From: Bryobacterales bacterium
GTDB taxonomy: Bacteria > Acidobacteriota > Terriglobia > Bryobacterales > UBA6623
Assembly (NCBI GenBank): GCA_965226245.1
Contig: CBDDCL010000015.1
Location: forward strand, 1,839,412 to 1,903,411
Reading direction: 5' to 3'
Length of the DNA stretch: 64,000 nucleotides
Under the pieces are notes generated by a model, which saw only the letters and a program-made list of their open reading frames with translations, did no database searches and was not told the DNA's origin. Below are positions 2,881 through 31,236 of the stretch, piece after piece (positions within the stretch are counted from its first letter, which is position 1; the number at the start of each line of letters is the position of its first letter). A program made the position numbers and the translations under genes.

Positions 2881-2922
2881 GGGTTCGGTGAAAAGTGAGG
2901 ACTGTCAGAGTTGCTCGGTGAG

Positions 2923-11620: not shown

Positions 11621-11720
11621 AGCCTTTTGAGCCGCGAAGCGGCGCCGGATCGTAGCCCATGGGTGGAGCGAAGCGGAACCCTGGGTCCGAAACCCCTCGA
11701 GGGAGAAGCCCCGCAAGGGG
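11621..11720. repeat. R-family repeat copy R2
   Basis: Near-identical to R1 and R3. ISa copy 1 is inserted 9 bp after its last hairpin (CCCCGCAAGGGG). Confidence 0.8.
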
Positions 11721-12658
11721 TGCATACCACCTGAATTATGCACTGCGGGTACACCTGAGGAGGGCTGTGCCGCGAGGGACCATTGGGCGACCCCCGAAAA
11801 CATGGGGTAATAAGGTAGGCTGGCAAAGATTTCAGCTTCGCCAGCCAACCCCAAGGAGGTCACCCAAATGGTTACCAAGCGAAAACAGCATAGCTCCAAA
11901 AACCCCGCCAAACAAGGCCGCGGCGCGACGGCTCCGCAGCCCAATAAAATCGGGGCTTCCACGCCCTATCACTTCCGCGGCAAGAATCTGACTCCCTACG
12001 GCGGCCTGCTGCCGGTCGCCACCCTGCTCGAAAAACTCGGCTTCCAAGAGCTGCTGGAACAAACCCTCAGCGTCAAACGAATCACCCGTGTGATGAGCCT
12101 CTACCAGTTTGTGCTGGCCCTCGTGCTGGCCCTCGTGCTGGGCCTCTATGTCGGCTTTGCACGGCTCAACCAACTCCGCTTCATCGCGCGCGACCCCATC
12201 CTGACCGGCATCTTGCAAGTGACGCGGCTGCCGCCGCAATCCACGCTGTGGCGCTTTCTGGCCTCGCTGCATCTCAACGTGGCGCGGCAGATCCTGTCGA
12301 TGCAGCGCCAACTGCGCGAACGAGCCTGGGCGGCGGCCAACGTGCGGTTGACCACGGTGACGCTGGACACCGACACCACCGTGCACACCCTCTACGGCCA
12401 GCAGATGGGCGGGCGCAAGAGCTACAACCCCAAGAACAAGGGCAAGCGCAGCTACCAGCCGATACTGACCTTCCTGGCCGAGACGCGCGAATACCTGATG
12501 GGCGGGTTGCACAATGGCGACCGGCCCACGGGCAAAGAGATCGCGGCGCACCTCGAAAGTGCTTTCCAGGCTTTGCCGGCCAGTGTGAAGCGGATCTTGG
12601 CGCGGGCCGATTCCGGCTTTTATTGCTGGGAAGCGGTGGCAGCCTACGAACAAGCGCA

Positions 12659-13685
12659 ATGGGGTATTTAGTTGACTCCAGTAGCCACAATATGTTGTGG
12701 TTGGGGGCATGAAGGAGGACTACCCCCGAAACCTCGTCGAGTTGGAAGCTCGATTCTCGACCGAGGAGGCGTGCCGGGAGTACCTGCTGAAGCTGCGCTG
12801 GCCGGAGGGGTTCGTGTGCCCGCGCTGTGGGATCCAGTCCTCATGGGCCAGCAAACGCAATCTGCTGCTCTGCGCCGACTGCGGTTACCAGGCCTCGGTG
12901 ACGGCGGGCACGATTTTCCAGGACACCCGCAAGCCCTTGACGTTGTGGTTCCGGGCGGCTTGGTGGGTGACAACGCAAAAAGGCGGGGCCAGCGCGCTGG
13001 AGTTGCAGCGGGTCTTGGGTTTGGGTAGCTATGTAACCGCCTGGACCTGGCTGCACAAGTTCCGCCGCGCCATGGTGCGCCCCGGTCGCAATCGGCTGGT
13101 CGGCCGGGTGGAGGTGGACGAAACGTATGTGGGCGGAGTCGAAGAGGGCGTCCGAGGTCGCGAAATGGTTGGCAAAGCGTTAGTTGCGGTTGCTGCCGAG
13201 GAGGATGGGCGCGGTATGGGTCGCATCCGGCTCCGTCGGATCGCGGATGCCTCAGCGGCGAGCTTGGAAGCCTTTGTCGAAGAAGCTATCCAACCTGGCA
13301 GCCTCGTGCACACCGACGGCTGGGAAGGCTATGCGGGATTGGAGAACAAAGGATACCGCCATGAAGTCACCGTGCTGCGCGGGAAGCGGCAATCGGCGAG
13401 TAAGCTGCTGCCGAGAGTCCATCGTGTCGCCTCTCTGCTAAAGCGCTGGCTGTTGGGGACCCACCAGGGGGCTGTCAGTCACGAGTATTTGGACTACTAC
13501 CTGGACGAGTTCACGTTCCGCTTCAACCGGCGGACCTCACGGTCGCGCGGCAAACTTTTCTATCGCCTCCTCCAGCAGGCGGTCGCCGCCGACCCTGCTC
13601 CCTATAAGACAATGGTCGAGGCCACCAGGGCCGGCACCCCCACCCCCAAGATGTAGTGGCTACTGGAGTCAACTAAATACCCCAT
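12659..13685 (+). mobile_element. ISb copy 1 (IS1595/ISXO2-like, 1027 bp) nested in ISa
   Basis: Inverted ends atggggtatttagttgactccagtagccac / gtggctactggagtcaactaaataccccat. The 8-bp duplication CAAGCGCA is at 12651-12658 and 13686-13693. The uninterrupted target gaacaagcgcattgtcag is seen in the other ISa copies. Confidence 0.92.
12709..13656 (+). CDS. IS1595-family (ISXO2-like) DDE transposase with N-terminal zinc ribbon
   Basis: MKEDYPRNL..., CPRCG...CADCG zinc ribbon, VEVDETYVGG and LVHTDGWEGY acidic motifs. ATG at 12709 (the track starts at GTG 12697). Confidence 0.9.
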   Translation: MKEDYPRNLVELEARFSTEEACREYLLKLRWPEGFVCPRCGIQSSWASKRNLLLCADCGYQASVTAGTIFQDTRKPLTLWFRAAWWVTTQKGGASALELQRVLGLGSYVTAWTWLHKFRRAMVRPGRNRLVGRVEVDETYVGGVEEGVRGREMVGKALVAVAAEEDGRGMGRIRLRRIADASAASLEAFVEEAIQPGSLVHTDGWEGYAGLENKGYRHEVTVLRGKRQSASKLLPRVHRVASLLKRWLLGTHQGAVSHEYLDYYLDEFTFRFNRRTSRSRGKLFYRLLQQAVAADPAPYKTMVEATRAGTPTPKM

Positions 13686-15040
13686 CAAGCGCATTGTCAG
13701 TTCGTCATCGTGGCGCGCAAGACTAGGCGACTGGTCGAGCAGTTGCAGCAAGCGGAATGGAAGCCCTCGCCCCACAGCGACGCTGCGGCGGAGTGCGAAT
13801 TCCTCTACCAGCCGCAAGGCTGGGGCAGGGCCTGCCGCTTTGTCGCGCTGCGTTATGAAAAGGAGCCGGAAACCGACGAGGTCGAGCAATATCAGTTGTT
13901 TGCAACCAGCGCTTACACCTACCGCGTGTTCGTCACCAACCTCACCGAGCCGATCGCGGCGGTGGCGTGGTTTTACAACCAGCGGGCTGGGGCGGAGAAC
14001 CTCATCAAAGAAGCCAACAACGACGCCGGGCTGGCGGCCCATCCTTCGCGCCGCTTTGACATGAACCGCAATCACTTTCAGTTGGTCATGCTGGCCTACA
14101 ACCTCAACTGCTGGCTGCTGCTGTTCCAGCGCGAAGCCGACGCCACCCCGGAGAAGCTGCGCCACACCACCCTGGCGACGGCGCGGCTGCGCTTTCTGTT
14201 CGTGGCGGCCAAGATCTGGCGGCATGCCGGCAGAACGGGCATCAGCTACAGCGATCAGTACCAGGAGCAGGGCCTGTTCGAGCGGCTGATGCGGCGGCTG
14301 CGGGCGATGGCGCCGCCGGGATCGAGCTGCGCGCCGGTGGTGGAGGGTGCGCTGCGTTGAGGGGCGCTGCGCATAGAATTTTATGCACGGGCCGCAAGCT
14401 ACTGGGAACATGCCGTTTGCGAGCCCGCTTTTGCCCGCCCGGAATTGGGAGGCGGCTCAAACCGGGAAGGAAACAGCAGAAAAGACGACTTGCTAAATCA
14501 CTGAGTTGACACGACTGCCGCTACCGCCACAACTCCATCGGCGATGGCTACGCCGAACCTGTGCATAATTCAGGTACCATAGTCCTGCTGGCGGTCGCGG
14601 AACTCTTCGTGCCAGTTTTGGACGACGCAACGGAAAATACTTTCACCTCGCCTGCGCTTCAAGATTCCAAGCGCTAGATGAGAACGCCGCCACGGAGCGG
14701 AGCTACTTTCGAGTTCTGCCCCTGATAAACTCGATTGATGACGAAACCGTACTCGGAACGCGGGATCCGGCAACTGCGGTGGTCACACTTACAGTTCTAG
14801 TACTAACGGATCATACCAAATAAGTACAAATTGTCTATGGACAAAACGCCTTAGTCGCGGCCATTATACCCTAGAACGCTCTTTTTGAGACTATGCCGCC
14901 CGTAGGGGCGGGCGTCAGCGAAGAGTCCGAGGGATTGGACCCGCGGCGCAGGAGCACGAAAAAAACGGGCAAGGAAGCAAAACTTCGGCGAAGCCGTGTG
15001 GCTGCGGGCGCGACGGTCTGGCTGGCTGGGAGATCGTGGT

Positions 15041-15068: not shown

Positions 15069-15126
15069 ATGCGCAACCGACATCGGGAATTAAATGGATA
15101 CACCATTCCTTGTTTACTCTCTTACA

Positions 15127-16924
15127 CCTGAATTATGCACAGGTTCGGCGTAGCCATCGCCGATGGAGTTGTGGCGGTAGCGGCAGTCGTGTCAACTCAG
15201 TGATTTAGCAAGTCGTCTTTTCTGCTGTTTCCTTCCCGGTTTGAGCCGCCTCCCAATTCCGGGCGGGCAAAAGCGGGCTCGCAAACGGCATGTTCCCAGT
15301 AGCTTGCGGCCCGTGCATAAAATTCTATGCGCAGCGCCCCTCAACGCAGCGCACCCTCCACCACCGGCGCGCAGCTCGATCCCGGCGGCGCCATCGCCCG
15401 CAGCCGCCGCATCAGCCGCTCGAACAGGCCCTGCTCCTGGTACTGATCGCTGTAGCTGATGCCCGTTCTGCCGGCATGCCGCCAGATCTTGGCCGCCACG
15501 AACAGAAAGCGCAGCCGCGCCGTCGCCAGGGTGGTGTGGCGCAGCTTCTCCGGGGTGGCGTCGGCTTCGCGCTGGAACAGCAGCAGCCAGCAGTTGAGGT
15601 TGTAGGCCAGCATGACCAACTGAAAGTGATTGCGGTTCATGTCAAAGCGGCGCGAAGGATGGGCCGCCAGCCCGGCGTCGTTGTTGGCTTCTTTGATGAG
15701 GTTCTCCGCCCCAGCCCGCTGGTTGTAAAACCACGCCACCGCCGCGATCGGCTCGGTGAGGTTGGTGACGAACACGCGGTAGGTGTAAGCGCTGGTTGCA
15801 AACAACTGATATTGCTCGACTTCGTCGGTTTCCGGCTCCTTTTCATAACGCAGCGCGACAAAGCGGCAGGCCCTGCCCCAGCCTTGCGGCTGGTAGAGGA
15901 ATTCGCACTCCGCCGCAGCGTCGCTGTGGGGCGAGGGCTTCCATTCCGCTTGCTGCAACTGCTCGACCAGTCGCCTGGTCTTGCGCGCCACGATGACGAA
16001 CTGACAATGCGCTTGTTCGTAGGCTGCCACCGCTTCCCAGCAATAAAAGCCGGAATCGGCCCGCGCCAAGATCCGCTTCACACTGGCCGGCAAAGCCTGG
16101 AAAGCACTTTCGAGGTGCGCCGCGATCTCTTTGCCCGTGGGCCGGTCGCCATTGTGCAACCCGCCCATCAGGTATTCGCGCGTCTCGGCCAGGAAGGTCA
16201 GTATCGGCTGGTAGCTGCGCTTGCCCTTGTTCTTGGGGTTGTAGCTCTTGCGCCCGCCCATCTGCTGGCCGTAGAGGGTGTGCACGGTGGTGTCGGTGTC
16301 CAGCGTCACCGTGGTCAACCGCACGTTGGCCGCCGCCCAGGCTCGTTCGCGCAGTTGGCGCTGCATCGACAGGATCTGCCGCGCCACGTTGAGATGCAGC
16401 GAGGCCAGAAAGCGCCACAGCGTGGATTGCGGCGGCAGCCGCGTCACTTGCAAGATGCCGGTCAGGATGGGGTCGCGCGCGATGAAGCGGAGTTGGTTGA
16501 GCCGCGCAAAGCCGACATAGAAGCCCAGCACGAGGGCCAGCACAAACTGGTAGAGGCTCATCACACGGGTGATTCGTTTGACGCTGAGGGTTTGTTCCAG
16601 CAGCTCTTGGAAGCCGAGTTTTTCGAGCAGGGTGGCGACCGGCAGCAGGCCGCCGTAGGGAGTCAGATTCTTGCCGCGGAAGTGATAGGGCGTGGAAGCC
16701 CCGATTTTATTGGGCTGCGGAGCCGTCGCGCCGCGGCCTTGTTTGGCGGGGTTTTTGGAGCTATGCTGTTTTCGCTTGGTAACCATTTGGGTGACCTCCT
16801 TGGGGTTGGCTGGCGAAGCTGAAATCTTTGCCAGCCTACCTTATTACCCCATGTTTTCGGGGGTCGCCCAATGGTCCCTCGCGGCACAGCCCTCCTCAGG
16901 TGTACCCGCAGTGCATAATTCAGG
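15127..16924 (-). mobile_element. ISa copy 2 (1798 bp), intact
   Basis: Terminal CCTGAATTATGCAC inverted repeats. The 5-bp duplication TTACA is at 15122-15126 and 16925-16929. Inserted after codon 11 of the GT2 gene. Confidence 0.92.
15341..16786 (-). CDS. ISa transposase (IS1380-family-like DDE, 481 aa)
   Basis: VTLDTDTTVHTLYGQQ, ARADSGFYCWE and FYNQRAGAENLIKEANND (Y-x2-R-x3-E-x3-K) motifs. SD aaggagg before the ATG. Confidence 0.9.
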   Translation of the reverse strand: MVTKRKQHSSKNPAKQGRGATAPQPNKIGASTPYHFRGKNLTPYGGLLPVATLLEKLGFQELLEQTLSVKRITRVMSLYQFVLALVLGFYVGFARLNQLRFIARDPILTGILQVTRLPPQSTLWRFLASLHLNVARQILSMQRQLRERAWAAANVRLTTVTLDTDTTVHTLYGQQMGGRKSYNPKNKGKRSYQPILTFLAETREYLMGGLHNGDRPTGKEIAAHLESAFQALPASVKRILARADSGFYCWEAVAAYEQAHCQFVIVARKTRRLVEQLQQAEWKPSPHSDAAAECEFLYQPQGWGRACRFVALRYEKEPETDEVEQYQLFATSAYTYRVFVTNLTEPIAAVAWFYNQRAGAENLIKEANNDAGLAAHPSRRFDMNRNHFQLVMLAYNLNCWLLLFQREADATPEKLRHTTLATARLRFLFVAAKIWRHAGRTGISYSDQYQEQGLFERLMRRLRAMAPPGSSCAPVVEGALR

Positions 16925-17435
16925 TTACACTAGTCAAGTTCTTGCTAGTCGTAGTTAGTGTCGGTTTTTTTGCGCTCGGCGTCGACGATCTCTTGGTTGA
17001 CATCTGCTACGCAGTCCGGCGTTTGTATCGCCGGCTCTTCGTGGAGCGGCGATACAAATCACTCAGCGAAAGTGATCTCCTCGAAAAGAGCGAACAGCCT
17101 GTTGCCATTATGATTCCTACCTGGCAGGAGTCTGGCGTCATCCGGCAGATGCTAGAGAATACGCTGCGGACGGTAACTTACTCAGACTTTGAGATCTTCG
17201 TTGGCACGTACCAAAACGACGAAGAGACAGCAGCCGCGGTAGAGAAGGCCCGCGAGCAATCGCACCGCGTTCACCGAATTGTCTGTCCCAAGGACGGGCC
17301 AACCAGCAAAGCCGACTGCCTCAACTGGATCTATCAGGGGATCCGGTCCTTTGAGGCTCGCAACAGCGTCAAGTTCGCATTCTATGTCATGCATGACTCG
17401 GAGGATATCGTTCACCCGCTCTCGCTAAAGTTGTT

Positions 17436-18472
17436 GATGGGTATTCACTTGACTCAGGTATTTTGAAATGGCCCCTACATGTTGTGGTTGTCCGTAGCGC
17501 GTGTTGCGGTGCCTCCGACCAGCGACTTGTAGGGCGCCGGTTGGACGGCGACGGCCTGCTGAACCAGGCGGTAGAAGAGCTTGCCTCGGCTTCTGGACTT
17601 GCGGCGGTTGAAGCGGAAGGTGAATTCGTCGAGGTAGTAGTCGAGATGCTCGTGGCTGACGGCTCCTTGATGCGTACCCAGTATCCAACGCTTCAGTAAC
17701 GACACCACGCGATGCACGCGGGGGAGCAGTTGAGAGGCTCGTGCCGGTTGCCCGTCCAGGTAGCTCACCTCGTGGCGATAGCCGTCGCTTTCGAGTGGCT
17801 CGTATCCCAGCCAGCCGTCCGTGTGGACCACGCTGCCGGGTTCGACCGACTCGCCGACGAAGGCCATCAAGCTGTCCCCAGAGGCGTTCGGAATCGTGCG
17901 CATCCGAACTCGTCCGATGCCGGCGCCATCTTCCTCGGCCGCTACTACAATCAGCGCTTTCGCGTCGGTTTGGCGGCCCCGCACGCCCTCCTCCAGGGCT
18001 CCTAAGTAAGTCTCGTCAACCTCAACGCGCCCGCTGAGGCGATCACGTCCGGGCCGCACCATAGCGCGCCGAAGCTTGTGCAACCAAGTCCAGGCCGTCT
18101 TGTAGCTGCCCAGGCCCAACACCCGCTGCAATCCCAATGCACTCGCCCCGTTCTTCTGGCTGGTGAGCCACCACATTGCTCGAAACCAACTCTGGAGCGG
18201 CTTGCGGGTGTCTTGAAAGATTGTGCCTGCTGTCGCCGAAGCTTGATGCCCGCAGCTTGCACACTGCAGCAGCACCGTGCGCACCGCCCAGGTTTTGTCA
18301 TGCCCGCATCGCGGACAACGAAAACCCTCCGGCCAGCGGAGTTGACACAGATACTCCCGACAGGCCTGCTCGCTAGCGAAACGCGCCTCGAACTCGGCCA
18401 AATTCCGGGGATAATCTTCCATCGCCCAAGATCCTACATCTTGGGGTCACCTGAGTCAAGTAAATACCCATC
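17436..18472 (-). mobile_element. ISb2 (diverged IS1595/ISXO2-like relative of ISb, 1037 bp)
   Basis: Ends gatgggtattcacttgactcaggt / acctgagtcaagtaaatacccatc. The 8-bp duplication AAGTTGTT is at 17428-17435 and 18473-18480. Confidence 0.88.
17475..18422 (-). CDS. IS1595-family (ISXO2-like) transposase, 315 aa
   Basis: MEDYPRNLAEFEARF..., CPRCG...CASCG, VEVDETYLGA, VVHTDGWLGY. Clearly homologous to, but distinct from, the ISb protein. Confidence 0.9.
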   Translation of the reverse strand: MEDYPRNLAEFEARFASEQACREYLCQLRWPEGFRCPRCGHDKTWAVRTVLLQCASCGHQASATAGTIFQDTRKPLQSWFRAMWWLTSQKNGASALGLQRVLGLGSYKTAWTWLHKLRRAMVRPGRDRLSGRVEVDETYLGALEEGVRGRQTDAKALIVVAAEEDGAGIGRVRMRTIPNASGDSLMAFVGESVEPGSVVHTDGWLGYEPLESDGYRHEVSYLDGQPARASQLLPRVHRVVSLLKRWILGTHQGAVSHEHLDYYLDEFTFRFNRRKSRSRGKLFYRLVQQAVAVQPAPYKSLVGGTATRATDNHNM

Positions 18473-18596
18473 AAGTTGTTTAACTACCTCATGCCCAGAA
18501 TGGGGATGGTACAACTCCCGGTACTTCCTCTGCAGACTCGGCTGCGGGACTTCACGAGTGGTCACTATATCGACGAGTTTTGTGAGTTTCATTCCA

Positions 18597-20396
18597 CCTG
18601 AATTATGCACAGGTTCGGCGTAGCCATCGCCGATGGAGTTGTGGCGGTAGCGGCAGTCGTGTCAACTCAGTGATTTAGCAAGTCGTCTTTTCCGCGGTTT
18701 CCCTCCCGGTTTGAGCCGCCTCCCAATCCGGGCGGGCAAAAGCGGGCTCGCAAACGGCATGTTCCCAGTAGCTTGCAGCAAGTGCATAAAATTTTATGCA
18801 TGGAGCACCTCTCAACGCAGCGCACCCTCCACCACCGGCGCGCAGCTCGATCCCGGCGGCGCCATCGCCCGCAGCCGCCGCATCAGCCGCTCGAACAGGC
18901 CCTGCTCCTGGTACTGATCGCTGTAGCTGATGCCCGTTCTGCCGGCGTGCCGCCAGATCTTGGCCGCCACGAACAGAAAGCGCAGCCGCGCCGTCGCCAG
19001 GGTGGTGTGCCGCAGCTTCTCCGGGGTGGCGTCGGCTTCACGCTGGAACAGCAGCAGCCAGCAGTTGAGGTTGTAGGCCAGCATGACCAACTGAAAGTGA
19101 TTGCGGTTGGTGTCAAAGCGGCGCGAAGGATGGGCCGCCAGCCCGGCATCGTTGTTGGCCTCCTTGATCAGGTTTTCCGCCCCGGCCCGCTGATTGTAAA
19201 ACCACACCACCGCCGCGATCGGCTCGGCCAGGTTGGTCACAAACACGCGGTAGGTGTAAGCGCTGGTTGCAAACAACTGATATTGCTCGACCTCCTCGGT
19301 TTCCGGCTCCTTTTCATAACGCAGCGCGACAAAGCGGCAAGCCCTGCCCCAGCCTTGCGGCTGGCAGAGGAATTCGCACTCCGCCGCAGCGTCGCTGTGG
19401 GGCGAGGGCTTCCATTCCGCTTGCTGCAACTGCTCGACCAGTCGCCTGGTCTTGCGCGCCACGATGACGAACTGACAATGCGCTTGTTCGTAGGCTGCCA
19501 CCGCTTCCCAGCAATAAAAGCCGGAATCGGCCCGCGCCAAGATCCGCTTCACACTGGCCGGCAAAGCCTGGAAAGCACTTTCGAGGTGCGCCGCGATCTC
19601 TTTGCCCGTGGGCCGGTCGCCATTGTGCAACCCGCCCATCAGGTATTCGCGCGTCTCGGCCAGGAAGGTCAGTATCGGCTGGTAGCTGCGCTTGCCCTTG
19701 TTCTTGGGGTTGTAGCTCTTGCGCCCGCCCATCTGCTGGCCGTAGAGGGTGTGCACGGTGGTGTCGGTGTCCAGCGTCACCGTGGTCAACCGCACGTTGG
19801 CCGCCGCCCAGGCTCGTTCGCGCAGTTGGCGCTGCATCGACAGGATCTGCCGCGCCACGTTGAGATGCAGCGAGGCCAGAAAGCGCCACAGCGTGGATTG
19901 CGGCGGCAGCCGCGTCACTTGCAAGATGCCGGTCAGGATGGGGTCGCGCGCGATGAAGCGGAGTTGGTTGAGCCGCGCAAAGCCGACATAGAGGCCCAGC
20001 ACGAGGGCCAGCACAAACTGGTAGAGGCTCATCACACGGGTGATTCGTTTGACGCTGAGGGTTTGTTCCAGCAGCTCTTGGAAGCCGAGTTTTTCGAGCA
20101 GGGTGGCGACCGGCAGCAGGCCGCCGTAGGGAGTCAGATTCTTGCCGCGGAAGTGATAGGGCGTGGAAGCCCCGATTTTATTGGGCTGCGGAGCCGTCGC
20201 GCCGCGGCCTTGTTTGGCGGGGTTTTTGGAGCTATGCTGTTTTCGCTTGGTAACCATTTGGGTGACCTCCTTGGGGTTGGCTGGCGAAGCTGAAATCTTT
20301 GCCAGCCTACCTTATTACCCCATGTTTTCGGGGGTCGCCCAATGGTCCCTCGCAGCTCAGCCCTCCTCAGGTGCACCCCGCAGTGCATAATTCAGG
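18597..20396 (-). mobile_element. ISa copy 3 (1800-bp sequence variant), intact
   Basis: Same terminal repeats. The 5-bp duplication TTCCA is at 18592-18596 and 20397-20401. It differs from the 1798-bp variant mainly in the transposase 3' third and both subterminal regions. Confidence 0.92.
18812..20257 (-). CDS. ISa transposase (variant allele, 481 aa)
   Basis: Full-length ORF with a few substitutions relative to the other copies (e.g. FLCQPQ, PETEEVEQ, NLAEPIAAVVW, RFDTNRN). Confidence 0.9.
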   Translation of the reverse strand: MVTKRKQHSSKNPAKQGRGATAPQPNKIGASTPYHFRGKNLTPYGGLLPVATLLEKLGFQELLEQTLSVKRITRVMSLYQFVLALVLGLYVGFARLNQLRFIARDPILTGILQVTRLPPQSTLWRFLASLHLNVARQILSMQRQLRERAWAAANVRLTTVTLDTDTTVHTLYGQQMGGRKSYNPKNKGKRSYQPILTFLAETREYLMGGLHNGDRPTGKEIAAHLESAFQALPASVKRILARADSGFYCWEAVAAYEQAHCQFVIVARKTRRLVEQLQQAEWKPSPHSDAAAECEFLCQPQGWGRACRFVALRYEKEPETEEVEQYQLFATSAYTYRVFVTNLAEPIAAVVWFYNQRAGAENLIKEANNDAGLAAHPSRRFDTNRNHFQLVMLAYNLNCWLLLFQREADATPEKLRHTTLATARLRFLFVAAKIWRHAGRTGISYSDQYQEQGLFERLMRRLRAMAPPGSSCAPVVEGALR

Positions 20397-21210
20397 TTCC
20401 AAGAACCTCGTGGTGCGCGAGTTTCTCAGTCACACCATGCCCTGTGCGGGTGTTGGGTGCGCTTTTAGCCGTGAGGTGTTTGAGACATTCGTCGAGGCGG
20501 ATCCAGACAATTTGTTCAACGTCGAGTCGTTGACAGAGGACTATGAGTTTGGACTGCGCCTCCGGGACTATAGCTGGAAAGCGATCTTTGTGAATAAGGC
20601 CCTGAAACGAACCGTTGTCGAAACAGATCCAAATTCCGGCGAAGAACGGCGGTCGAAGGTCTCCGATTACGTCGCTACAAGGGAGTTGTTCCCTAACAAA
20701 CTTTCCGCGGCGGTCCGTCAAAAATCCCGCTGGGTGATTGGCATTGCCCTGCAAGGCTGGCGGAATTTGGGTTGGAGAGGTACGTGGGCCGCGCGCTATG
20801 CGTTTCTGCAGGACAGGAAGTGTCTATTAGGAAATCACCTGAACATGGCGGGATACGCTCCGCTGGGCTGTCTGCTGTTGCTGTGGATCCCAACCGTAGT
20901 CGATCCCGGGCGGTACAGTTTTCCCGTCCTGGTCACGACTGGCTCCTGGCTATGGTATATCCTCTGGGTCGATCTAGTATTTCTGCTGAATCGGCTTGTT
21001 CACCGCTCGTTTTTCGTCTGGCGGATCTACGGCTGGAAGCAGGGCCTGTGCTCCATTCCAAGGGCCATCTGGGGCAATGTAATTAACTTTCTTGCGGTCG
21101 TTCGGGCTGTATATCTCTACGGGCGCTATCTACTCACCAGAAAACCCATCGGTTGGGACAAGACCGGACATGTTTTCCCGTCCGCACTGACCTTTAGCAA
21201 AACTTACGGG

Positions 21211-21369
21211 CGTTTGGGCGATTTGTTACTCGAACAGCGGTCCATCACAGTAGACCACCTGCTGGCTGCCTTACAGGTACAGCGGCAACGTCGGCTGCCT
21301 TTGGGATTGATTCTAAAAGATCTTAGGTACGTCGAGGAGCGCCATCTGCAGCGCGCACTCACCCGCCAA
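21211..21369 (+). other. Tandem MshEN-type c-di-GMP-binding motifs in the GT2 C-terminal domain
   Basis: RLGDLLLEQRSITVDHLLAALQVQ followed by LPLGLILKDLRYVEERHLQRALTRQ, compared with the published MshEN consensus RLGxx(L/V/I)(L/V/I)xxG(L/V/I/F)(L/V/I)xxxxLxxxLxxQ. The first-motif Gly is replaced by Arg. Confidence 0.6.
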
Positions 21370-23612
21370 ATTGAAAGTGCAACCCCATTGCCTCCGCCAA
21401 AGCGGCTCGTTTCGGATCTTTTGCGGAAACTGCCTCGCGATATGGCTTCCTCTTGCTCCGCGATTCCGGTAGACGAAGATCAGGAAGGGCGGGTCGTCAT
21501 CGCCACGAGCGAGATCTTGAGCCGGGAAAAAATCGAGGCTCTTCAAGCCCGCTTTGACAAGCCCATAAGGATTCAGCTGGCAGAGCGCAAAGAAGTGGGA
21601 TTGCTGATCGAGCGGGCCTACGGCTCGTGAAGTGAAACGTCAGCTCGGGAGATGCCGGTCAGCTAAATAACAACTCTTGGTAACGACTCGCCCAAACCGA
21701 ACTTTGGAAGGCATGACTTGTATGCAACGACCCAGCTATAAACCGCCTTCGATCCTTATTCTGACCGTAGCGTTGTTGGGGGCGTGTCAACTATGGGCGC
21801 CCCGGGCTGGAGCAGCCCCGGACCCCAACGTCGCCAAGACCGCCGAGCGTGGCTGGATCTCGAGAGAATACCATCGTATACGTAACCACCTTGTTCTCAG
21901 CGAGACCCATCGGCTCGTGGCGTCGCCATGGTGCGCGGTGAACTCGAAAATGCCCGCCACAAGCTGGAAACTCACCTCCGTGACCAGCCTCGAGATATAC
22001 CGGCAAGGCGCCAATACCTTACCGTGCTTGACCGTTTGGGGCTTCACCCGAAAGTCATACAAGAAGCGACGCTTCTCATCGACCAAGACCCCGAGTTTCG
22101 CGATGCCAGGCTCTACCGCGCGGGGGCCTACCAAGCGGTCGGTAGGATCCGAGAAGCGGTGTCCGACTTTCAAGCAGTGGGCATTGACCAAGCAAACGAG
22201 CAGGCAGACCGGATCTACGCGCTGAATATGGCCGCGGACCTGGCCCTCGGTCAGCAACTTTACAGCGAGGCGCTGGATTCGCTAGCGCATCTGGCAGCAT
22301 TCTCGCAAACTTATGCTGTCTACTTTCGCAGGGGTTTGGCGCTGGAGGGGGCGGGCCGGGTGTCCTCGGCGACGGAGGCTTACAAGCTCGCTCTCGAGCG
22401 GGCGAGCACGGATGAGGAGCGGCTCGGCGCCCTCCGTGGGCTAGGTGGGACGGCCCGAAAAAGCGGGGATTCGGGCGCGGCGTACAAGGTGTTTTCCAAA
22501 GCCCACCAACTAAGGTCCGACGATGTGTTCGTGCTGCGCAGCTTGGCTGAGATCACTCGTTCGCAGAAGCAATTTCGGGAAACTGCAGGGTGGGCCCGGC
22601 AGGTTCTTGCCATTACCCAGGACCCAAGTGATAGAGAGTTCCTTGCAAGTGTCCTTTACCAGAGCAAGGACTACTCAGGAGCAGCCAGAGAGTATTCAAT
22701 CCTGAAGGCGGATGTTGATCCGCCGCGGAGAGTGCGAGCTTACCGCGCTCTGGCGAATATTGCTGGCCGGCAGGGTAATTTCTCTTCCGAAAAACGCCAT
22801 CTGATGTCAGCGCTGAGTCTAGACTCCCGGAATGCTGAGGTGCTCCGGGCGCTGGCCCACAACAGCTCTAAACAAAGAGACTACGAGGCTAGCGTCAATT
22901 GGATAAAAAAGGCGAGGGCCGCCCAGCCCAAGTTGGAAGACCACATCCTTCTAGCCAACGGGTTGATCGAGCTTGGCCGGTTTCAGGACGCCGTTAAACA
23001 GTGGACCATCGTGCTTTCCGGGCTAAAGGTTCCCCGGAACAGACATCCAATCTTGGTGTCGTTGGGTCACACCCACACTCTGGCGGGTGATCAGGCCTCC
23101 GCTACAGCAGCTTTTCGTGAAGCTGCTCGCATTCGTCCGGACGTGCTCACCCTAACAGCCCTCGCACACTCTCTGGAAGCAGCACAGTCTTTGAGTGAAG
23201 CGATTGAGATTTGGGAAGCTGTGCTCGAGCAAAGTCCATCCCCGGAAACGCACTACAGATTAGGAGTACTCTTCGCCCAAGCCGGCGAAGATCTCCAGGC
23301 TCTCAACCATTTATCCAAGGCGGCACAGAACGGTCTATCAATAGAGCTGAAGGCTTCGGCATATAAGCAACTGGGTTACCTCTACCAGAAATCCGGCCAG
23401 CTGAGGCAAGCTCTTTCGGCCTTCGAAAAGGCGGTTACTCGGGACGAGAAAGATTCCGTGCTCTACCTGGCGCTGGGCAACTTATCCATGCAGATGCATG
23501 AGTACGGGAAAGCGATCCACTACTTTCAGCTCGGCCTCGCAATCGAGCACACACCAGAGCTTATTCGAGGGCTAACTGTGGCTGAGGTTCAGGCGTCAGG
23601 CGAACTGTTGCA

Positions 23613-25410
23613 CCTGAATTATGCACTGCGGGTACACCTGAGGAGGGCTGTGCCGCGAGGGACCATTGGGCGACCCCCGAAAACATGGGGTAATAAGGTA
23701 GGCTGGCAAAGATTTCAGCTTCGCCAGCCAACCCCAAGGAGGTCACCCAAATGGTTACCAAGCGAAAACAGCATAGCTCCAAAAACCCCGCCAAACAAGG
23801 CCGCGGCGCGACGGCTCCGCAGCCCAATAAAATCGGGGCTTCCACGCCCTATCACTTCCGCGGCAAGAATCTGACTCCCTACGGCGGCCTGCTGCCGGTC
23901 GCCACCCTGCTCGAAAAACTCGGCTTCCAAGAGCTGCTGGAACAAACCCTCAGCGTCAAACGAATCACCCGTGTGATGAGCCTCTACCAGTTTGTGCTGG
24001 CCCTCGTGCTGGGCCTCTATGTCGGCTTTGCGCGGCTCAACCAACTCCGCTTCATCGCGCGCGACCCCATCCTGACCGGCATCTTGCAAGTGACGCGGCT
24101 GCCGCCGCAATCCACGCTGTGGCGCTTTCTGGCCTCGCTGCATCTCAACGTGGCGCGGCAGATCCTGTCGATGCAGCGCCAACTGCGCGAACGAGCCTGG
24201 GCGGCGGCCAACGTGCGGTTGACCACGGTGACGCTGGACACCGACACCACCGTGCACACCCTCTACGGCCAGCAGATGGGCGGGCGCAAGAGCTACAACC
24301 CCAAGAACAAGGGCAAGCGCAGCTACCAGCCGATACTGACCTTCCTGGCCGAGACGCGCGAATACCTGATGGGCGGGTTGCACAATGGCGACCGGCCCAC
24401 GGGCAAAGAGATCGCGGCGCACCTCGAAAGTGCTTTCCAGGCTTTGCCGGCCAGTGTGAAGCGGATCTTGGCGCGGGCCGATTCCGGCTTTTATTGCTGG
24501 GAAGCGGTGGCAGCCTACGAACAAGCGCATTGTCAGTTCGTCATCGTGGCGCGCAAGACCAGGCGACTGGTCGAGCAGTTGCAGCAAGCGGAATGGAAGC
24601 CCTCGCCCCACAGCGACGCTGCGGCGGAGTGCGAATTCCTCTACCAGCCGCAAGGCTGGGGCAGGGCCTGCCGCTTTGTCGCGCTGCGTTATGAAAAGGA
24701 GCCGGAAACCGACGAAGTCGAGCAATATCAGTTGTTTGCAACCAGCGCTTACACCTACCGCGTGTTCGTCACCAACCTCACCGAGCCGATCGCGGCGGTG
24801 GCGTGGTTTTACAACCAGCGGGCTGGGGCGGAGAACCTCATCAAAGAAGCCAACAACGACGCCGGGCTGGCGGCCCATCCTTCGCGCCGCTTTGACATGA
24901 ACCGCAATCACTTTCAGTTGGTCATGCTGGCCTACAACCTCAACTGCTGGCTGCTGCTGTTCCAGCGCGAAGCCGACGCCACCCCGGAGAAGCTGCGCCA
25001 CACCACCCTGGCGACGGCGCGGCTGCGCTTTCTGTTCGTGGCGGCCAAGATCTGGCGGCATGCCGGCAGAACGGGCATCAGCTACAGCGATCAGTACCAG
25101 GAGCAGGGCCTGTTCGAGCGGCTGATGCGGCGGCTGCGGGCGATGGCGCCGCCGGGATCGAGCTGCGCGCCGGTGGTGGAGGGTGCGCTGCGTTGAGGGG
25201 CGCTGCGCATAGAATTTTATGCACGGGCCGCAAGCTACTGGGAACATGCCGTTTGCGAGCCCGCTTTTGCCCGCCCGGAATTGGGAGGCGGCTCAAACCG
25301 GGAAGGAAACAGCAGAAAAGACGACTTGCTAAATCACTGAGTTGACACGACTGCCGCTACCGCCACAACTCCATCGGCGATGGCTACGCCGAACCTGTGC
25401 ATAATTCAGG
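23613..25410 (+). mobile_element. ISa copy 4 (1798 bp), intact
   Basis: Terminal repeats as above. The 5-bp duplication TTGCA is at 23608-23612 and 25411-25415. Confidence 0.92.
23751..25196 (+). CDS. ISa transposase (481 aa)
   Basis: Differs from the 15341-16786 copy by a single residue (GLYVG here versus GFYVG there); the 34112-35557 protein as listed is identical. Confidence 0.9.
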   Translation: MVTKRKQHSSKNPAKQGRGATAPQPNKIGASTPYHFRGKNLTPYGGLLPVATLLEKLGFQELLEQTLSVKRITRVMSLYQFVLALVLGLYVGFARLNQLRFIARDPILTGILQVTRLPPQSTLWRFLASLHLNVARQILSMQRQLRERAWAAANVRLTTVTLDTDTTVHTLYGQQMGGRKSYNPKNKGKRSYQPILTFLAETREYLMGGLHNGDRPTGKEIAAHLESAFQALPASVKRILARADSGFYCWEAVAAYEQAHCQFVIVARKTRRLVEQLQQAEWKPSPHSDAAAECEFLYQPQGWGRACRFVALRYEKEPETDEVEQYQLFATSAYTYRVFVTNLTEPIAAVAWFYNQRAGAENLIKEANNDAGLAAHPSRRFDMNRNHFQLVMLAYNLNCWLLLFQREADATPEKLRHTTLATARLRFLFVAAKIWRHAGRTGISYSDQYQEQGLFERLMRRLRAMAPPGSSCAPVVEGALR

Positions 25411-27679
25411 TTGCAAGACGCAGATTCGCATACGAAACCGGCACTACTCAAGCAGGCAGCCGAGCGATTTCTGGCTGCATATGAAGAGTCCGATGACGCT
25501 GATCTCCTAGCGCAGACCGCTCAAGCCTACTACCTCGCTGGAGACTGGCCGGAAGCGAGCAAGACTTACGAGCGACTGATGGCGCTGCCTGGCTTAGCCC
25601 AAAATACTCTGGGACTGGCTTTGGAGAACTTGGGGTTCATTGCGCTCCGTGAAGGCCGATCAGACCAGGCGGTTGATTTTCTGAGCCAGGCGATCAAACA
25701 GGGAGGTGCCGGTTCCCGCTTGAGGCAGAACTTAGGGCTTGCTCTCTATTCTGAGCGACGTTGGCGCGAAGCCCTGGAGCAGTTTCATGCCGCCTCCGAG
25801 GAGAAGAAGGACTCCCAGGTGCTGATTTACGTGGCGCGGTGTTACAAGGAATTGAATAAGCCTGGCCTAGCCATTAAGTTCTTCAGAGAGGCACTTGCCA
25901 TTGGGAAAAGTATGCAGCCTTCCGAGCGACGCGAAGTCCTCAGCGAGCTGGGCTACCTCTACGCCGGTCAGCCAGACTACGCCGAGGCGGCGTCGGCTTG
26001 GCGTCAGGTCCTTGTCCTCAAAGAAGAACCGGCAGTCCGCATTCGGCTGGCTCGGGTGGAGCGGCTGGCTTCGGAGATCGAGAACGCGCAGACAACACTG
26101 GAGACGATCGAGGTTGGGTCCCTGCCTTCGGAGCTTATTGCTGAATACTTCGAGGAACGCGCGGAGCTAGCCTACGCCGGAGGTCAAACCGCCCAAGCGG
26201 TGGAGCACTTGGAATCATCGGCCTCCCTAGCTCCCGAACCTGGACGCTTGCTCCGGCTGGGACTTCTATACGACGAAATCGACGAGATTGACAGGTCGAT
26301 CGAGGTCCTCGAGAACGCTCGACAACTCGACCCTCAAAGCACTCGTATCGCTGAAGCTCTAGGTTATGCCTACGCCCGGCGGGATGAACTGGACCGGGCT
26401 ACCGAAGTCTTCGAAGAGGTCGCCGATCGGGATCCGCACAACTCCAATGTGACTCGGGATCTGGCCTACCTCCTCATGAAACATGGCAGAAACGAGCAGG
26501 CCCGAACTTGGTTCCGCCACTCAATTGATTATCAGCCGCAGCCCCCTGAAGCAACTCGGGATCTGCATCCCGACGAAATCGAGGAGAACTTCCGCGTCAG
26601 GAAAGAGATCTCAAAACTGGGCAATCGCGTCGACCTGATTCCCTATTTTTCGTACTCTTCGGCTGATCGCAGTCAGCCGGCGGCTTTCGCCGCAGTGGGC
26701 GGGACGGCGATCCCGTCCCAAGGCGGTGTCGAACTGGCTTACACCCCGCGGCGCTTTGGTCTGCGCAACGACCGCGTCTTCCAAGTCTTCGGACGCGTGC
26801 TAGGGAACCTCCAACCGGCTTCTCTCAGTATGGACAACGAGAGTTACCAGGGAGGAATCGGCGCCCGCTACAAGCCGCTTCCGACACAGAATTTGTACTT
26901 CTCCGGAGAGCGGCTGTTTAAGATCGGCTCGAATTCCTTCAACACTTGGTTCCTGCGCAGTCATTATTCTTGGGCGAGCGAGTACGGGGTGAAGCCGCTG
27001 CGAAAAGCCTGGAACCACACCATGTTCTACGGCGACATCGGCTACTTGACCTCTCCTGATCTGTTCACGATGTACGGAGAAGCACGACAGGGCGTCACTT
27101 TTCGTTTCGGCGATGGCTTCCTCGTGACACCTCACGCGCTGGTGGCTGGCCGGAACTACAATCCGAACAGAAATGTCAGCTCGTATCTTGAAGGCGGTGC
27201 TGGTGTCGCATTCAAAGTGTTGTACAACGACAGTCTCTACGACGTACATCGTTCCGGATTCGAGGTGGCGGTACAATACCGCTGGGGAATCATATCCGCG
27301 CTGGCGCCGCTCTTGAATCAGCCGAGGTTCGGCGGGCTCGTGATCAGTACAATGCTTCAGTTTTGAGGGAAACTTTTGGTGTCGACGATTTACTCTCGCA
27401 GTAGAATTCTACTAGTGGCAGCTTTGGCCCTTGTCGCCGCCGGAAGGTCGCGTGAACTTCCGCCATCCGTTCTAATTCAAGGAACCTTTTTGCAGTTGTG
27501 GGACGATCATGCCCAATGGAGCGATTCCCAGTGGGACAAGCTGTTTGGATACTTCGAAGAGTTGCAAATGAGGACCCTGGTGGTCCAGTGGACGGTCTAC
27601 GACTCGACGGCGTTCTATGAATCGGATCAGTTCGAGGCAGTCGGAACGCTGCCAGTTGAGGGAATCCTGAAAAGAGCCG

Positions 27680-28706
27680 ATGGGGTATTTAGTTGACTCC
27701 AGTAGCCACTACATCTTGGGGGTGGGGGTGCCGGCCCTGGTGGCCTCGACCATTGTCTTATAGGGAGCAGGGTCGGCGGCGACCGCCTGCTGGAGGAGGC
27801 GATAGAAAAGTTTGCCGCGCGACCGTGAGGTCCGCCGGTTGAAGCGGAACGTGAACTCGTCCAGGTAGTAGTCCAAATACTCGTGACTGACAGCCCCCTG
27901 GTGGGTCCCCAACAGCCAGCGCTTTAGCAGAGAGGCGACACGATGGACTCTCGGCAGCAGCTTACTCGCCGATTGCCGCTTCCCGCGCAGCACGGTGACT
28001 TCATGGCGGTATCCTTTGTTCTCCAATCCCGCATAGCCTTCCCAGCCGTCGGTGTGCACGAGGCTGCCAGGTTGGATAGCTTCTTCGACAAAGGCTTCCA
28101 AGCTCGCCGCTGAGGCATCCGCGATCCGACGGAGCCGGATGCGACCCATACCGCGCCCATCCTCCTCGGCAGCAACCGCAACTAACGCTTTGCCAACCAT
28201 TTCGCGACCTCGGACGCCCTCTTCGACTCCGCCCACATACGTTTCGTCCACCTCCACCCGGCCGACCAGCCGATTGCGACCGGGGCGCACCATGGCGCGG
28301 CGGAACTTGTGCAGCCAGGTCCAGGCGGTTACATAGCTACCCAAACCCAAGACCCGCTGCAACTCCAGCGCGCTGGCCCCGCCTTTTTGCGTTGTCACCC
28401 ACCAAGCCGCCCGGAACCACAACGTCAAGGGCTTGCGGGTGTCCTGGAAAATCGTGCCCGCCGTCACCGAGGCCTGGTAACCGCAGTCGGCGCAGAGCAG
28501 CAGATTGCGTTTGCTGGCCCATGAGGACTGGATCCCACAGCGCGGGCACACGAACCCCTCCGGCCAGCGCAGCTTCAGCAGGTACTCCCGGCACGCCTCC
28601 TCGGTCGAGAATCGAGCTTCCAACTCGACGAGGTTTCGGGGGTAGTCCTCCTTCATGCCCCCAACCACAACATATTGTGGCTACTGGAGTCAACTAAATA
28701 CCCCAT
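27680..28706 (-). mobile_element. ISb copy 2 (1027 bp); identical encoded transposase, so apparently identical to copy 1
   Basis: Same ends as copy 1. AAGAGCCG is at 27672-27679 and 28708-28715, with one extra T (28707) between the IS end and the right copy. Confidence 0.9.
27709..28656 (-). CDS. IS1595-family (ISXO2-like) transposase
   Basis: The protein is identical to the 12709-13656 copy. Confidence 0.9.
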   Translation of the reverse strand: MKEDYPRNLVELEARFSTEEACREYLLKLRWPEGFVCPRCGIQSSWASKRNLLLCADCGYQASVTAGTIFQDTRKPLTLWFRAAWWVTTQKGGASALELQRVLGLGSYVTAWTWLHKFRRAMVRPGRNRLVGRVEVDETYVGGVEEGVRGREMVGKALVAVAAEEDGRGMGRIRLRRIADASAASLEAFVEEAIQPGSLVHTDGWEGYAGLENKGYRHEVTVLRGKRQSASKLLPRVHRVASLLKRWLLGTHQGAVSHEYLDYYLDEFTFRFNRRTSRSRGKLFYRLLQQAVAADPAPYKTMVEATRAGTPTPKM

Positions 28707-29649
28707 TAAGAGCCGAACAGGCCGGGATAAAAGTGTGGCTGGGTCTTGCTAACGACAGTTCTTACTGGAATCGGATCGGCGCTGACCGCTCGTTTCTGGA
28801 AACTTACCTGCGTAACCTTCGCAATCGATCCGCACTCGTCGCGGCCGAGCTCCTCCCAATCGCAGCCCGCTATGACTCTTTCGCAGGCTGGTACATCCCT
28901 ACCGAGATCGATGACGTTAACTGGCGAACGCGTGAAGCCGCAGGGTCGCTGAACCGCTTTGTTTCCGGTCTAAGTAGGGATTTGAGGCGCATTACACCCG
29001 ATGCCGGGATTGCGATCTCCGGGTTTTCGAACGCTTATCTGGACCCGAGAGGTTTCGAGCGATTCTGGACTAAACTGATGACGGAGGCCAAGCTGGACAT
29101 CGTGCTATTCCAAGACGGCGTCGGCGCGGGGAAACTCCTTCCGCGGGAGCTTGGTTTCTACATTCAAGCGATCCAGCGTTCCTCAAAGCAGTCGGGCTGC
29201 CGGCTGGTCGTTGTTCTGGAACTTTTTGAACAGATCCCAGGCGATTCCGGATTCGATGCCCGACCGGCCCCTTTCGAGAGGATCATTGATCAACTCAACC
29301 AAGTCAGACAGACCGGCGTCACTGAGATATTCGCCTTCAGCGTTCCAGAATACTTGACACCGCTGGGTGGTCCGGAAGCTGAAAAGAACTATCGGGATTA
29401 CCGCCGCCTACTGTCTCCACGGGGCCCCAGGGAGTAGTATCTCCCTCCGATACTATTTTGCGGGTTTCGCGCTGCGTTTCCGGCCAGAACACCCAAGCTG
29501 GGAGGCGGCTTCGAGCCTGCTGTTTCGGGTCACGAACCGGGTATCGTTGACCTTCAATTATTTACGAAGAAATTACAGTCTGCTGACCCGCGACGGTTGG
29601 TATCAAGGGGCTTATGTCGGACTTCAGATCGAACCATAAAAGGGGTACC

Positions 29650-30743
29650 ATGCACTTTCTCATTACGGGCGGCGCGGGTTTTATCGGCTCTCATCTCGCG
29701 GAAAGGCTCATGCGGGAGCATGGGACGGTTACCTCCTCGACAATTTGAGCACGGGTTCGCTGGCCAACCTCGAACAACTCTTTGATCAGCCCGGTTTTGA
29801 GTTTGTGGAAGGCAATATTCTCGACGAGAGGCTGGTTCACCGTCTGGTGGAGCGCTGCGACGTGGTCGTCCACCTGGCGGCCGTGGTGGGCGTGCGTTAC
29901 GTGCTTACGCACCCTCTTGAAACCCTTCAAGCCAACGTGAGCGGCACGGCGAACGTTCTTGAAGCGGCACGGCGATCTCGAACGAAAGTGCTCATTGCGA
30001 GCAGTTCCGAAGTATACGGCAAGAACGAATCCAAACTGCTCTGTGAAACCGCCGACTCGGTGCTGGGCCCCTCATCGATGGGTCGCTGGGCGTATGCCAC
30101 CACAAAGAAGATGGATGAGTTCATGGCTATCGCGTACGCCTCCCATTACGGTGTTCCGGCGGTGATTACCCGATTTTTCAACGTTGCCGGCCCCCGGCAG
30201 AACGGCCGCTACGGTATGGTACTGCCCTGTTTCGTGCGGGCGGCGCTCGCGGGAACCCCGATTCGTGTTTTTGGGGACGGCAGACAAACCCGCAATTTCA
30301 GCTTTATCAGCGACGTCATCGATGCCCTCTGCGGGCTGCTGGAATGTAAAGAAGCGGAAGGCGAAATCTTTAACATTGGTGGAACGGAAGAGATCTCGAT
30401 ACGGAAACTCGCCGAGCTAGTAAAGGCCACGGCGGGATCGCGGAGCCCGATCATCACGGTCCCCTATCACCAAGCCTATCCCGAAACGGGATTTGAAGAC
30501 ATGCGACGCAGAGTACCTTGCCTTTGTAAGATCCGGCAACTGACCGGCTGGCAGTCCGTTACGCCAGTGCAGCAGATGATCCGCGAAACGCTCGCCTGGG
30601 AGCTGAGAACGACGCTGCTGCAATGCGAGCGGGAAGGAAGCCGCCAGGATGACGGGGCAGACGACAGATATCGCCCGGCGTTGGGCCGTACCCAACCACC
30701 ACGGCAGATTTCCGGCCCCGGCTTGACACACCCCTTACAATGA
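29650..30743 (+). pseudogene. NAD-dependent epimerase/dehydratase (UDP-sugar epimerase/decarboxylase-like) with a frameshift after about 25 codons
   Basis: ATG 29650 gives MHFLITGGAGFIGSHLAERLMREHG..., then stops at 29746-29748. The expected continuation (Y)LLDNLSTGSLANLEQL... is in frame 3 (ORF 29745-30743). The C-terminal tail is encoded by repeat D1. Confidence 0.7.
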
Positions 30744-31040
30744 AATCAGACTCCCGTCAGGGGGAGGCTGCGGTCGGCGTGATGGGAGCAAGCAGCGTCC
30801 TCTCAATAGAAGAAGGCAAGGGCGGGTAGCCGAACTCGTCTTTTTTTGATTGCGGCGCGAACGTCTGCGCTTGCCGCAAAATGATTCGCCGGTTCGTCCG
30901 GCTTGCGGCGCCGGACACCGCTCTCCACGCCGGCGTTTCCCAATTCGAGTGAAGGAGAAGTGTGTCCGGACAGCCCAAAGCGCGAATTTTCTGAAATCCG
31001 CTCAATCCTGCTCACTCTGCATCCAATTGGCGGACCACCG
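30708..31040. repeat. D-family repeat copy D1 (inverted relative to D2)
   Basis: tttccggccccggcttgacacaccccttacaatga...gcgaattttctgaaatccgctcaatcctgctcactctgcatccaattgg is the reverse complement of 53786-54053, with a variable centre. Confidence 0.75.
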
Positions 31041-31236
31041 CCCGAAATCTTGTATCGGACGGCTCGAAGAGACCTCCGTCTTTTGCTGCCCCGGGCTCTG
31101 GCGCTCCAGCAGGCCGATCGCGACGGCCCCGAGCATGGCGTCTGGGCGCGGACCGCGCATCCCGGTAGCGAAACGGCGGGGCGCGCCAGAACCGCCATAT
31201 GGACGACGCCATGGGACCGATGAAACCGCCGAATCA

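Follow-up and report, generated by a model that had tools for sequence, protein, structure and literature searches.

The 64,000-nucleotide window analysed here, from the genome of a Bryobacterales bacterium, contains an nfrB-nfrA-ybcH-type operon that is interrupted by five insertion sequences (IS) between positions 15127 and 28706. We consider that these insertions have piled up neutrally in a dead, dispensable operon of an IS-loaded genome, aided by regional activity of one of the elements, here called ISa, and we would give this reading a probability of about 0.6. A preliminary description of the stretch had placed three options side by side, namely neutral accumulation after a first knockout, a preferred insertion target, or repeated selection for loss of a surface glycan. 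The first of these is the best supported, since one ISa copy (A1) is the common first insertion and the later ones are nested and lineage-specific.

All coordinates refer to the window, in which the elements were placed by self-BLAST and exact end searches. Each of the five elements within the studied interval has its own perfect target duplication, and they therefore represent five separate transposition events, as had been proposed. Three of them are copies of ISa: A1 (15127-16924, minus strand, 1798 bp, TTACA duplication, transposase open reading frame (ORF) at 15341-16786 on the minus strand), A2 (18597-20396, minus strand, 1800 bp, TTCCA duplication), which belongs to a diverged subtype, and A3 (23613-25410, plus strand, 1798 bp, TTGCA duplication), which is present only in the window haplotype. 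The other two are ISb2 (17436-18472, minus strand, 1037 bp, 8-bp duplication AAGTTGTT, transposase at 17475-18422 on the minus strand) and a copy of ISb in ybcH (27680-28707, minus strand, 1028 bp here, 8-bp duplication AAGAGCCG), again confined to the window haplotype; this last element had been recognized correctly, but its end had been put 1 bp short, at 28706.

A further ISa copy, A0 (11730-14574, plus strand, TACCA duplication), occupies the malQ-nfrB intergenic region and holds a nested ISb (12659-13685, plus strand, 1027 bp, 8-bp duplication CAAGCGCA) that is 100% identical to the copy in ybcH. A0 had been counted with the rest of the window, although it can hardly be regarded as outside the locus, for it sits only 515 bp upstream of nfrB; with A0 included, a span of 6.65 kb of native DNA takes in six of the eight top-level insertions. 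The older copies outside the locus, A4 (33974-35771, plus strand, TAACA duplication, directly after the stop codon of a metallo-beta-lactamase-fold gene) and A5 (43322-45066, minus strand, 1745 bp, with an internal deletion of ~50 bp, in the spacer between an SprT-like gene and parDE), are both in intergenic positions and are found in all haplotypes; the end and duplication search of the window gave no target duplication for A5. Altogether, IS account for 13.9 kb (22%) of the window.

ISa is 1798-1800 bp long, with one 481-aa transposase ORF and 14-bp perfect terminal repeats (CCTGAATTATGCAC). Its transposase matches NCBIfam NF033539 with 249 bits (cut-off 180) and Pfam PF13701 with E = 1e-54, placing it in the IS1380 family, which according to ISfinder has a single ORF, a length of ~1.7 kb, short terminal inverted repeats and 4-5 bp duplications; 5-bp duplications of ISa were seen at 13 distinct sites. 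ISb (1027/1028 bp, one end varying by 1 bp) and ISb2 (1037 bp) belong to the IS1595 family, as their transposases reach 205 and 202 bits against NF033547 (cut-off 75) and both contain PF12760 and PF12762, an N-terminal zinc ribbon and an ISXO2-like DDE domain. Members of that family, per ISfinder, are ~1 kb long and make 8-bp target duplications, which were found at most of the 21 ISb sites and at 12 of the 14 ISb2 sites. The earlier statement that all copies are near-identical holds in part: A2 and A5 differ as a subtype by 2.2% from A0, A1, A3 and A4, and ISb2 is only ~70% identical to ISb. An ORF of 506-510 aa also runs antisense over the whole ISa transposase gene (15290-16822 on the plus strand, 18773-20293 and 23715-25247); it has no match to a Pfam family and is probably the shadow ORF of a GC-rich gene.

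When each element is excised together with one copy of its duplication, three ORFs are recovered over exactly 6,852 bp, the native length given before. Judged from its predicted products, this sequence is an nfrB-nfrA-ybcH-type exopolysaccharide synthase/secretion operon, and the Nfr-like surface-glycan assignment is borne out by gene order and domains matching those of E. coli nfrBA-ybcH. All of its genes are on the plus strand. In the window nfrB lies in four pieces: codons 1-11 (MDTPFLVYSLT, 15094-15126), which align with the N-terminus of E. coli NfrB and are severed from the rest by A1; a second fragment (16930-17435) with the N-terminal part of the GT2 domain and the DxD motif HDSED; a third of 116 bp (18481-18596); and a fourth (20402-21630) with the TED and QxxRW motifs, transmembrane segments and the C-terminal MshEN domain. 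The restored NfrB is a protein of 627 aa with a GT2 and a C-terminal MshEN domain (PF13641, PF13632, PF05157) and is 36% identical to E. coli NfrB over 610 residues. It keeps HDSED (DxD), TED, QKSRW (QxxRW) and the RLG-containing MshEN motif, and since all catalytic motifs are preserved, there has been no time yet for point decay. Position 10 of the 24-residue MshEN motif is R, not G; from its sequence the domain is probably of the type that binds cyclic di-GMP (c-di-GMP), and the system was probably controlled by this messenger.

Directly downstream, nfrA is divided into a 5' part (21722-23612), with a signal peptide and TPR repeats and a frame shifted by an 11-bp insertion, and a 3' part (25416-27366), with TPR repeats and the NfrA_C outer-membrane domain. 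The signal-peptide-like N-terminus reads MQRPSYKPPSILILTVALLGAC, and TPR repeats and PF13283 are found both in the intact 1276-aa NfrA of sister haplotypes and in the window fragments. The third gene, ybcH (27490-27679 and 28716-29437), matches PF14488 (DUF4434) with E = 3e-50, the family to which E. coli YbcH also belongs (E = 1.5e-69). A fourth gene, 300 bp downstream, is a UDP-glucuronate-decarboxylase-like SDR pseudogene (29650-30743, plus strand), in which a 1-nt frameshift at about 29722-29725 parts the Rossmann N-terminus from the remainder; its repaired translation aligns without gaps to solved structures of UDP-glucuronate decarboxylase (UXS) from residue 3 on.

Exact-protein matching located the same chromosomal region in three other long-read metagenome contigs, namely S1 (ERZ21829562), S2 (ERZ28669063) and S3 (ERZ28763718, a 7.19-Mb contig). 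After IS excision, the native sequences differ from the window by only 1-3 single-nucleotide polymorphisms (SNPs) over 9.4 kb, so the insertions are recent, as had been supposed, and the strain comparison proposed for each of them could be resolved as presence or absence over four haplotypes. A1, A4, A5 and the SDR frameshift are common to all four; since A1 is present throughout, the insertion at nfrB codon 11 is the ancestral one. All lesions of the locus other than A1 and the SDR frameshift are lineage-specific and nested. In S1, A1 is the sole IS copy at the locus and is accompanied by a 108-bp insertion that introduces a stop codon into nfrB, while S2 has A1 and an ISb in nfrA at window 26138-26145. 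S3 and the window alone share A0 with its nested ISb, ISb2 and A2 at identical sites, the A0 site being empty in S1 and S2. S3 does not have A3, the ISb at 27680 or the 11-bp insertion, which leaves nfrA (1276 aa) and ybcH (303 aa) uninterrupted; its own hits are an ISb at window 11545-11552 and an ISa in the SDR pseudogene at window 30217.

The lesions seen only in the window are A3, the ISb in ybcH, the 11-bp insertion in nfrA and a 12-bp tandem duplication in A0, where a repeat in the transposase gene (~12111-12146) has gone from two to three copies. The 11-bp non-tandem insertion (GCCATGGTGCG, 21925-21935) frameshifts the window nfrA and is missing from all three sisters, two of which have an intact 1276-aa NfrA. 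From this nested distribution the order of events is clear: A1 came first; A0, the ISb into A0, ISb2 and A2 followed, and after them A3 and the ISb at 27680. None of the four known haplotypes has an unbroken operon. About ten lineage-specific IS-related events lie within the 9.3 kb from the malQ-nfrB spacer to the SDR gene across the four haplotypes, and no lineage-specific insertion was found in the ~38 kb of flanking sequence compared. IS events outnumber SNPs at this locus, meaning that transposition is frequent in this genome.

The 108-bp insertion of S1 (L014 11455-11563, at window 21167/21168) consists of a 37-bp direct target duplication flanking a 71-78-bp piece of ISb, which is internal to the element (window 27874-27951) and not an IS end; this scar looks like the product of templated repair or of a template switch. 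S1 also has a point lesion outside the nfr locus, an inosine-uridine nucleoside hydrolase gene that is split there (278 + 79 aa; L016 11493-12565, window ~31240-32313) and intact (358 aa) in S2, S3 and the window.

On the reading that we prefer, ISa would have inactivated the operon once, by entering nfrB at codon 11 and cutting the promoter and start codon off the gene, and the downstream sugar-nucleotide enzyme gene would have been frameshifted at about the same time. A stretch of roughly 9 kb would have been selectively neutral thereafter. With transposition being frequent, new insertions would persist mostly where they are harmless, and the dead operon would have become a sink for ISa, ISb, ISb2 and small indels, independently in each sublineage, with the regional concentration of ISa probably adding to the local supply. 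We infer, then, that the first insertion abolished function and that the later ones were neutral.

A scan statistic gives P = 0.05 for any 6.85-kb span of the window with at least five of the eight insertions, and P = 0.005 for at least six of the eight with A0 included. Under uniform placement, all ten lineage-specific events would fall in the locus with P ~9e-8, a value that rises to 0.14 if only 2 kb of other DNA is neutral. The IS density of the locus (1 per 1.4 kb) is far over the genome average, so that the equal densities named in the preliminary description as the outcome that would speak against clustering were not found. By our own arithmetic the locus is ~8-fold enriched over the regional IS density, which is the size expected if only about 1/10 to 1/4 of the DNA tolerates insertion.

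Several observations nevertheless weigh against neutral accumulation. The window holds ~8-10 kb of other intergenic DNA, and if 8 kb of it is taken as neutral, the probability of finding all ten events in the locus falls to 0.002; the locus would then be a preferred target as well, unless most of the intergenic DNA is under constraint. Although SNP divergence is close to nil, an independent second lesion in nfrB or nfrA is present in each of the four haplotypes, the same pattern that selection for complete inactivation would predict. Furthermore, a hybrid frame starting from the A1 end replaces only the first 11 codons of nfrB and is called as a 626-aa gene in one haplotype; since this frame survives, A1 alone may not have abolished function. 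A search of the A1 end facing nfrB gave no outward promoter-like site, which is weak evidence against residual expression. No intact operon allele was found in any close relative, the next NfrB match being 51% identical.

A physical preference for the locus or its neighbourhood, with the clustering reflecting insertion rate and not tolerance, appears doubtful to us, but it has evidence behind it. Such a preference could stem from lower GC content, from the TNNCA motif, from ISa hopping locally out of nearby copies or from IS being drawn to DNA in which others already sit. No 6.85-kb stretch of the native window has a lower GC content than the locus (56.2% versus 59.9%), in line with the earlier impression, and the 13 distinct ISa duplications are TNNNA in every case and TNNCA on one strand in 12, whatever the orientation of the IS; given TNNNA, the chance of this at the present base composition is ~0.002 by our own arithmetic. 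The TNNCA duplications noticed before are thus real, but as a cause of the clustering TNNCA density was rejected, because the sites are just 1.24-fold denser in the locus (21.5 versus 17.3 per kb elsewhere) and motif weighting leaves the scan probabilities the same. The regional concentration of ISa is equally real: in S3, the listed positions of the two common ISa transposase variants begin at 3.0 Mb, with ~8 copies in the ~155 kb around the nfr locus and further ones as far out as 6.4 Mb, versus none in 175 kb sampled around ISb copies within the first 535 kb. Three of the 5-6 copies of the A2/A5 subtype are within 142 kb, five of six ISa copies sampled elsewhere adjoin other IS copies, and the strain on the neutral model when all intergenic DNA counts as neutral (P ~0.002) speaks for target preference as well. 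However, three unrelated elements with different target rules (5-bp TNNCA versus 8-bp duplications) have all struck the locus. ISb with an identical transposase is evenly spread elsewhere (at least nine copies in the first 535 kb of S3, ~1 per 50 kb), yet it accounts for five independent events here across haplotypes, two of which have no nearby ISb to hop from. Neighbouring copies cannot be named as donors, since the transposase variants of A2/A5 and of A3/A4 are found at distant sites and on a plasmid-like contig as well. A5 was accordingly dropped as the donor of A2, and local hopping stays conjectural at the level of copies for the same reason.

Somewhat less probable still is that loss of the polymer, or of the outer-membrane protein NfrA, was repeatedly under positive selection, possibly driven by escape from a receptor-using phage or by the shedding of a costly or motility-impairing exopolysaccharide; the first insertion would then have been leaky or deregulating, and second-site knockouts would have been favoured in each lineage. 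The homologous system of E. coli indeed makes a glycan and an outer-membrane protein that phage N4 needs, and its activity impairs motility (PMC8669469, PMC8669472), and both the second lesions in four of four haplotypes and the persistence of the 626-aa hybrid frame downstream of A1 fit such a course. But insertions continued after nfrB already bore A1, ISb2 and A2, and those in the upstream spacer, inside IS, in ybcH (the auxiliary gene in E. coli) and in an already frameshifted gene would add no loss of function; pure selection for glycan loss cannot explain them. The missing outward promoter-like site at the A1 end also argues weakly against a leaky first insertion, the phage and receptor evidence comes from E. 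coli, and the SNPs are too few for a test of the ratio of non-synonymous to synonymous substitutions (dN/dS). Selection may possibly have favoured the early insertions, but that the Nfr locus is a recurrent target of selection or directed insertion in wild acidobacteria, for example under phage receptor pressure after a leaky A1, we hold to be improbable. An assembly artefact, with repeated IS copies misplaced or collapsed, is hardly credible. Such errors are to be feared where 22% of a window is IS with near-identical copies, yet the duplications of all five insertions are exact and excision restores the reading frames; an independent 7.19-Mb contig has A0, A1, ISb2 and A2 at the very same sites, and A1 is seen in all four assemblies; the sister contigs show empty sites for every insertion of the nfr locus but A1; and a Logan contig (L018) that matches window 28681-31136 with 100% identity has its first bases within the ISb end, at the junction with DUF4434. 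The doubt raised earlier about artefacts can thus be laid aside.

The nfr locus is not unique as an IS nest in this genome, since other ISa copies lie in nests of 3-5 IS among fragments of hsdR, an AcrB-like pump gene and methylase genes. In a sister genome, four ISb and one ISa are nested in 7.5 kb (L041 1476-8943), where three of the ISb form a tandem array with repeated 255-bp spacers and common flanks, which suggests that the array arose by recombination amplification and not by separate insertions. Restriction-modification genes have been repeatedly struck, with an ISa in a type I hsdM, an ISb in an N6/N4 methylase gene and hsdR fragments in an IS nest (examples in L047, at ~4.59 Mb of the sister genome, L028 and L036); accessory defence genes of this genome thus seem often to act as sinks for IS. 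In S3, the SprT side and the parDE side of the A5 spacer each adjoin a separate ISa (L045 and L046, at ~3.033 and ~3.150 Mb, ~117 kb apart), so that the A5 arrangement of the window looks like a deletion by ISa-ISa recombination, or else S3 holds an IS-bounded insertion.

An ISa of the A2/A5 subtype with a TAACA duplication was also found on a circular 75.7-kb contig (ERZ21829562:ctg251262c, L051), and an ISb on a circular contig of 39 kb (ERZ25074053:ctg443165, L022). Both contigs carry RepA_C replication genes and are plasmid-like vehicles that could move the elements between strains. The ISb2 transposase was found in 137 blocks of the searched collection. A scan of genome contigs for ISa ends gave only a 75-bp fragment in a Bryobacterales metagenome-assembled genome (MAG) and, in a MAG of Ca. 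Acidiferrales, a relative with 90% identity. An ISb2-rich contig of 909 kb contained no ISa and no ISb, and was set aside as a density control because it may come from another organism.

The host is an uncultured member of the Acidobacteriota, with a Bryobacterales-like genome and a heavy IS load. The closest named relatives of its NadE are from MAGs of Bryobacterales and other Acidobacteriota (70-72% identity), and sister species with 91-92% identical NadE exist. The low GC content of the operon is consistent with an accessory, horizontally acquired origin. A candidate sigma-70-like promoter, a consensus match only, is found at 14838-14867 on the plus strand, ~230 bp upstream of the nfrB start. 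Scanning the window for Rfam families and tRNAs gave no match, and no riboswitch was found in the 1.1-kb nfrB leader.

Besides the eight insertions, the window contains an older element that had gone uncounted when the rest of the window was credited, otherwise correctly, with three ISa and one nested ISb. This 962-bp element (5057-6018) has 160-bp terminal inverted repeats (93% identical) and a 155-aa ORF without a family match. It adjoins a truncated zinc-dehydrogenase gene (5998-6330, C-terminal part only) and is common to all haplotypes; related ends are found elsewhere in the sister genome (L025), and it is probably an old non-autonomous mobile element. A dispersed repeat of ~100 bp, 94-96% identical and always intergenic, occurs at 2921-3024, 11599-11724 and 41977-42100 and at many loci of the sister genome. 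A0 is inserted at the 3' edge of one copy, for which neither an Rfam match nor a fold signal (z = 0.03) was obtained. Finally, a pair of 164-bp inverted repeats (86% identical, 30876-31036 and 53778-53941) lies in two intergenic regions 23 kb apart.

That several IS gather in a dead accessory operon is to be expected in an IS-rich genome, and IS expansion with pseudogenes hit more than once is as well known as the knockout of exopolysaccharide loci by IS. What is new is an instance in an uncultured acidobacterium with an unusually clean nested haplotype series, together with the record in Acidobacteriota of an Nfr-type system, outside the groups surveyed before (PMC8669469). The value of the locus is its resolution, since four near-identical haplotypes give a stepwise record of decay that includes the first lesion. 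Transposition outpaces point mutation here, and three unrelated elements keep entering the same 9 kb with 38 kb of neighbouring sequence untouched, which makes the locus a natural data set for weighing tolerance against target choice in IS distribution. If the later insertions were selected after all, this would be a sign that phages drive the loss of a receptor in an uncultured lineage from soil; such a reading, if true, would extend the N4/Nfr receptor paradigm far beyond Proteobacteria, to parallel receptor loss by transposition in nature.

In E. coli, nfrBA-ybcH makes and exports a c-di-GMP-activated exopolysaccharide that, together with NfrA, serves as the receptor of phage N4; our comparison draws on Junkermeier and Hengge 2021 (PMC8669469) and Sellner et al. 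2021 (PMC8669472). The gene order is the same in both organisms. NfrB has a GT2 and an MshEN domain with DxD, TED, QxxRW and RLG kept, NfrA has a signal peptide, TPR repeats and NfrA_C, and YbcH has DUF4434. Unlike the E. coli system, the present one comes from an acidobacterial host, is broken in every known haplotype and has a function predicted from its genes. Its NfrA is longer (1276 versus 990 aa), and its NfrB has no C-terminal DUF4388 extension such as that of E. coli and most database homologues (627 versus ~750 aa). The adjacent sugar-nucleotide gene is UXS-like here and WecB-like in E. coli, and for this reason the polymer may differ from the ManNAc-type product of E. coli.

Knockouts of surface polysaccharides by IS are familiar from IS256 in staphylococcal ica, IS1301 in meningococcal siaA and IS in the cellulose synthase genes of Komagataeibacter. 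Here too an IS inactivates an exopolysaccharide synthase operon, but those cases are single insertions, often acting as reversible phase switches, whereas the present ones are multiple, irreversible and due to three elements; no evidence of IS excision was seen at this locus, the ISb-derived scar in S1 being one possible exception. Another parallel is the expansion of IS and the build-up of pseudogenes in the restricted or bottlenecked Shigella, Bordetella pertussis, Yersinia pestis and Burkholderia mallei. Many near-identical IS of few types, interrupted accessory genes, IS-bounded rearrangements and IS nests in dead genes are features that the present genome shares with them. In contrast to those bacteria, it is a free-living-type acidobacterial genome of 7.19 Mb from soil or sediment, known only from metagenomes, for which we know of no host restriction, and its decay has been caught as a nested series of haplotypes at a single locus.

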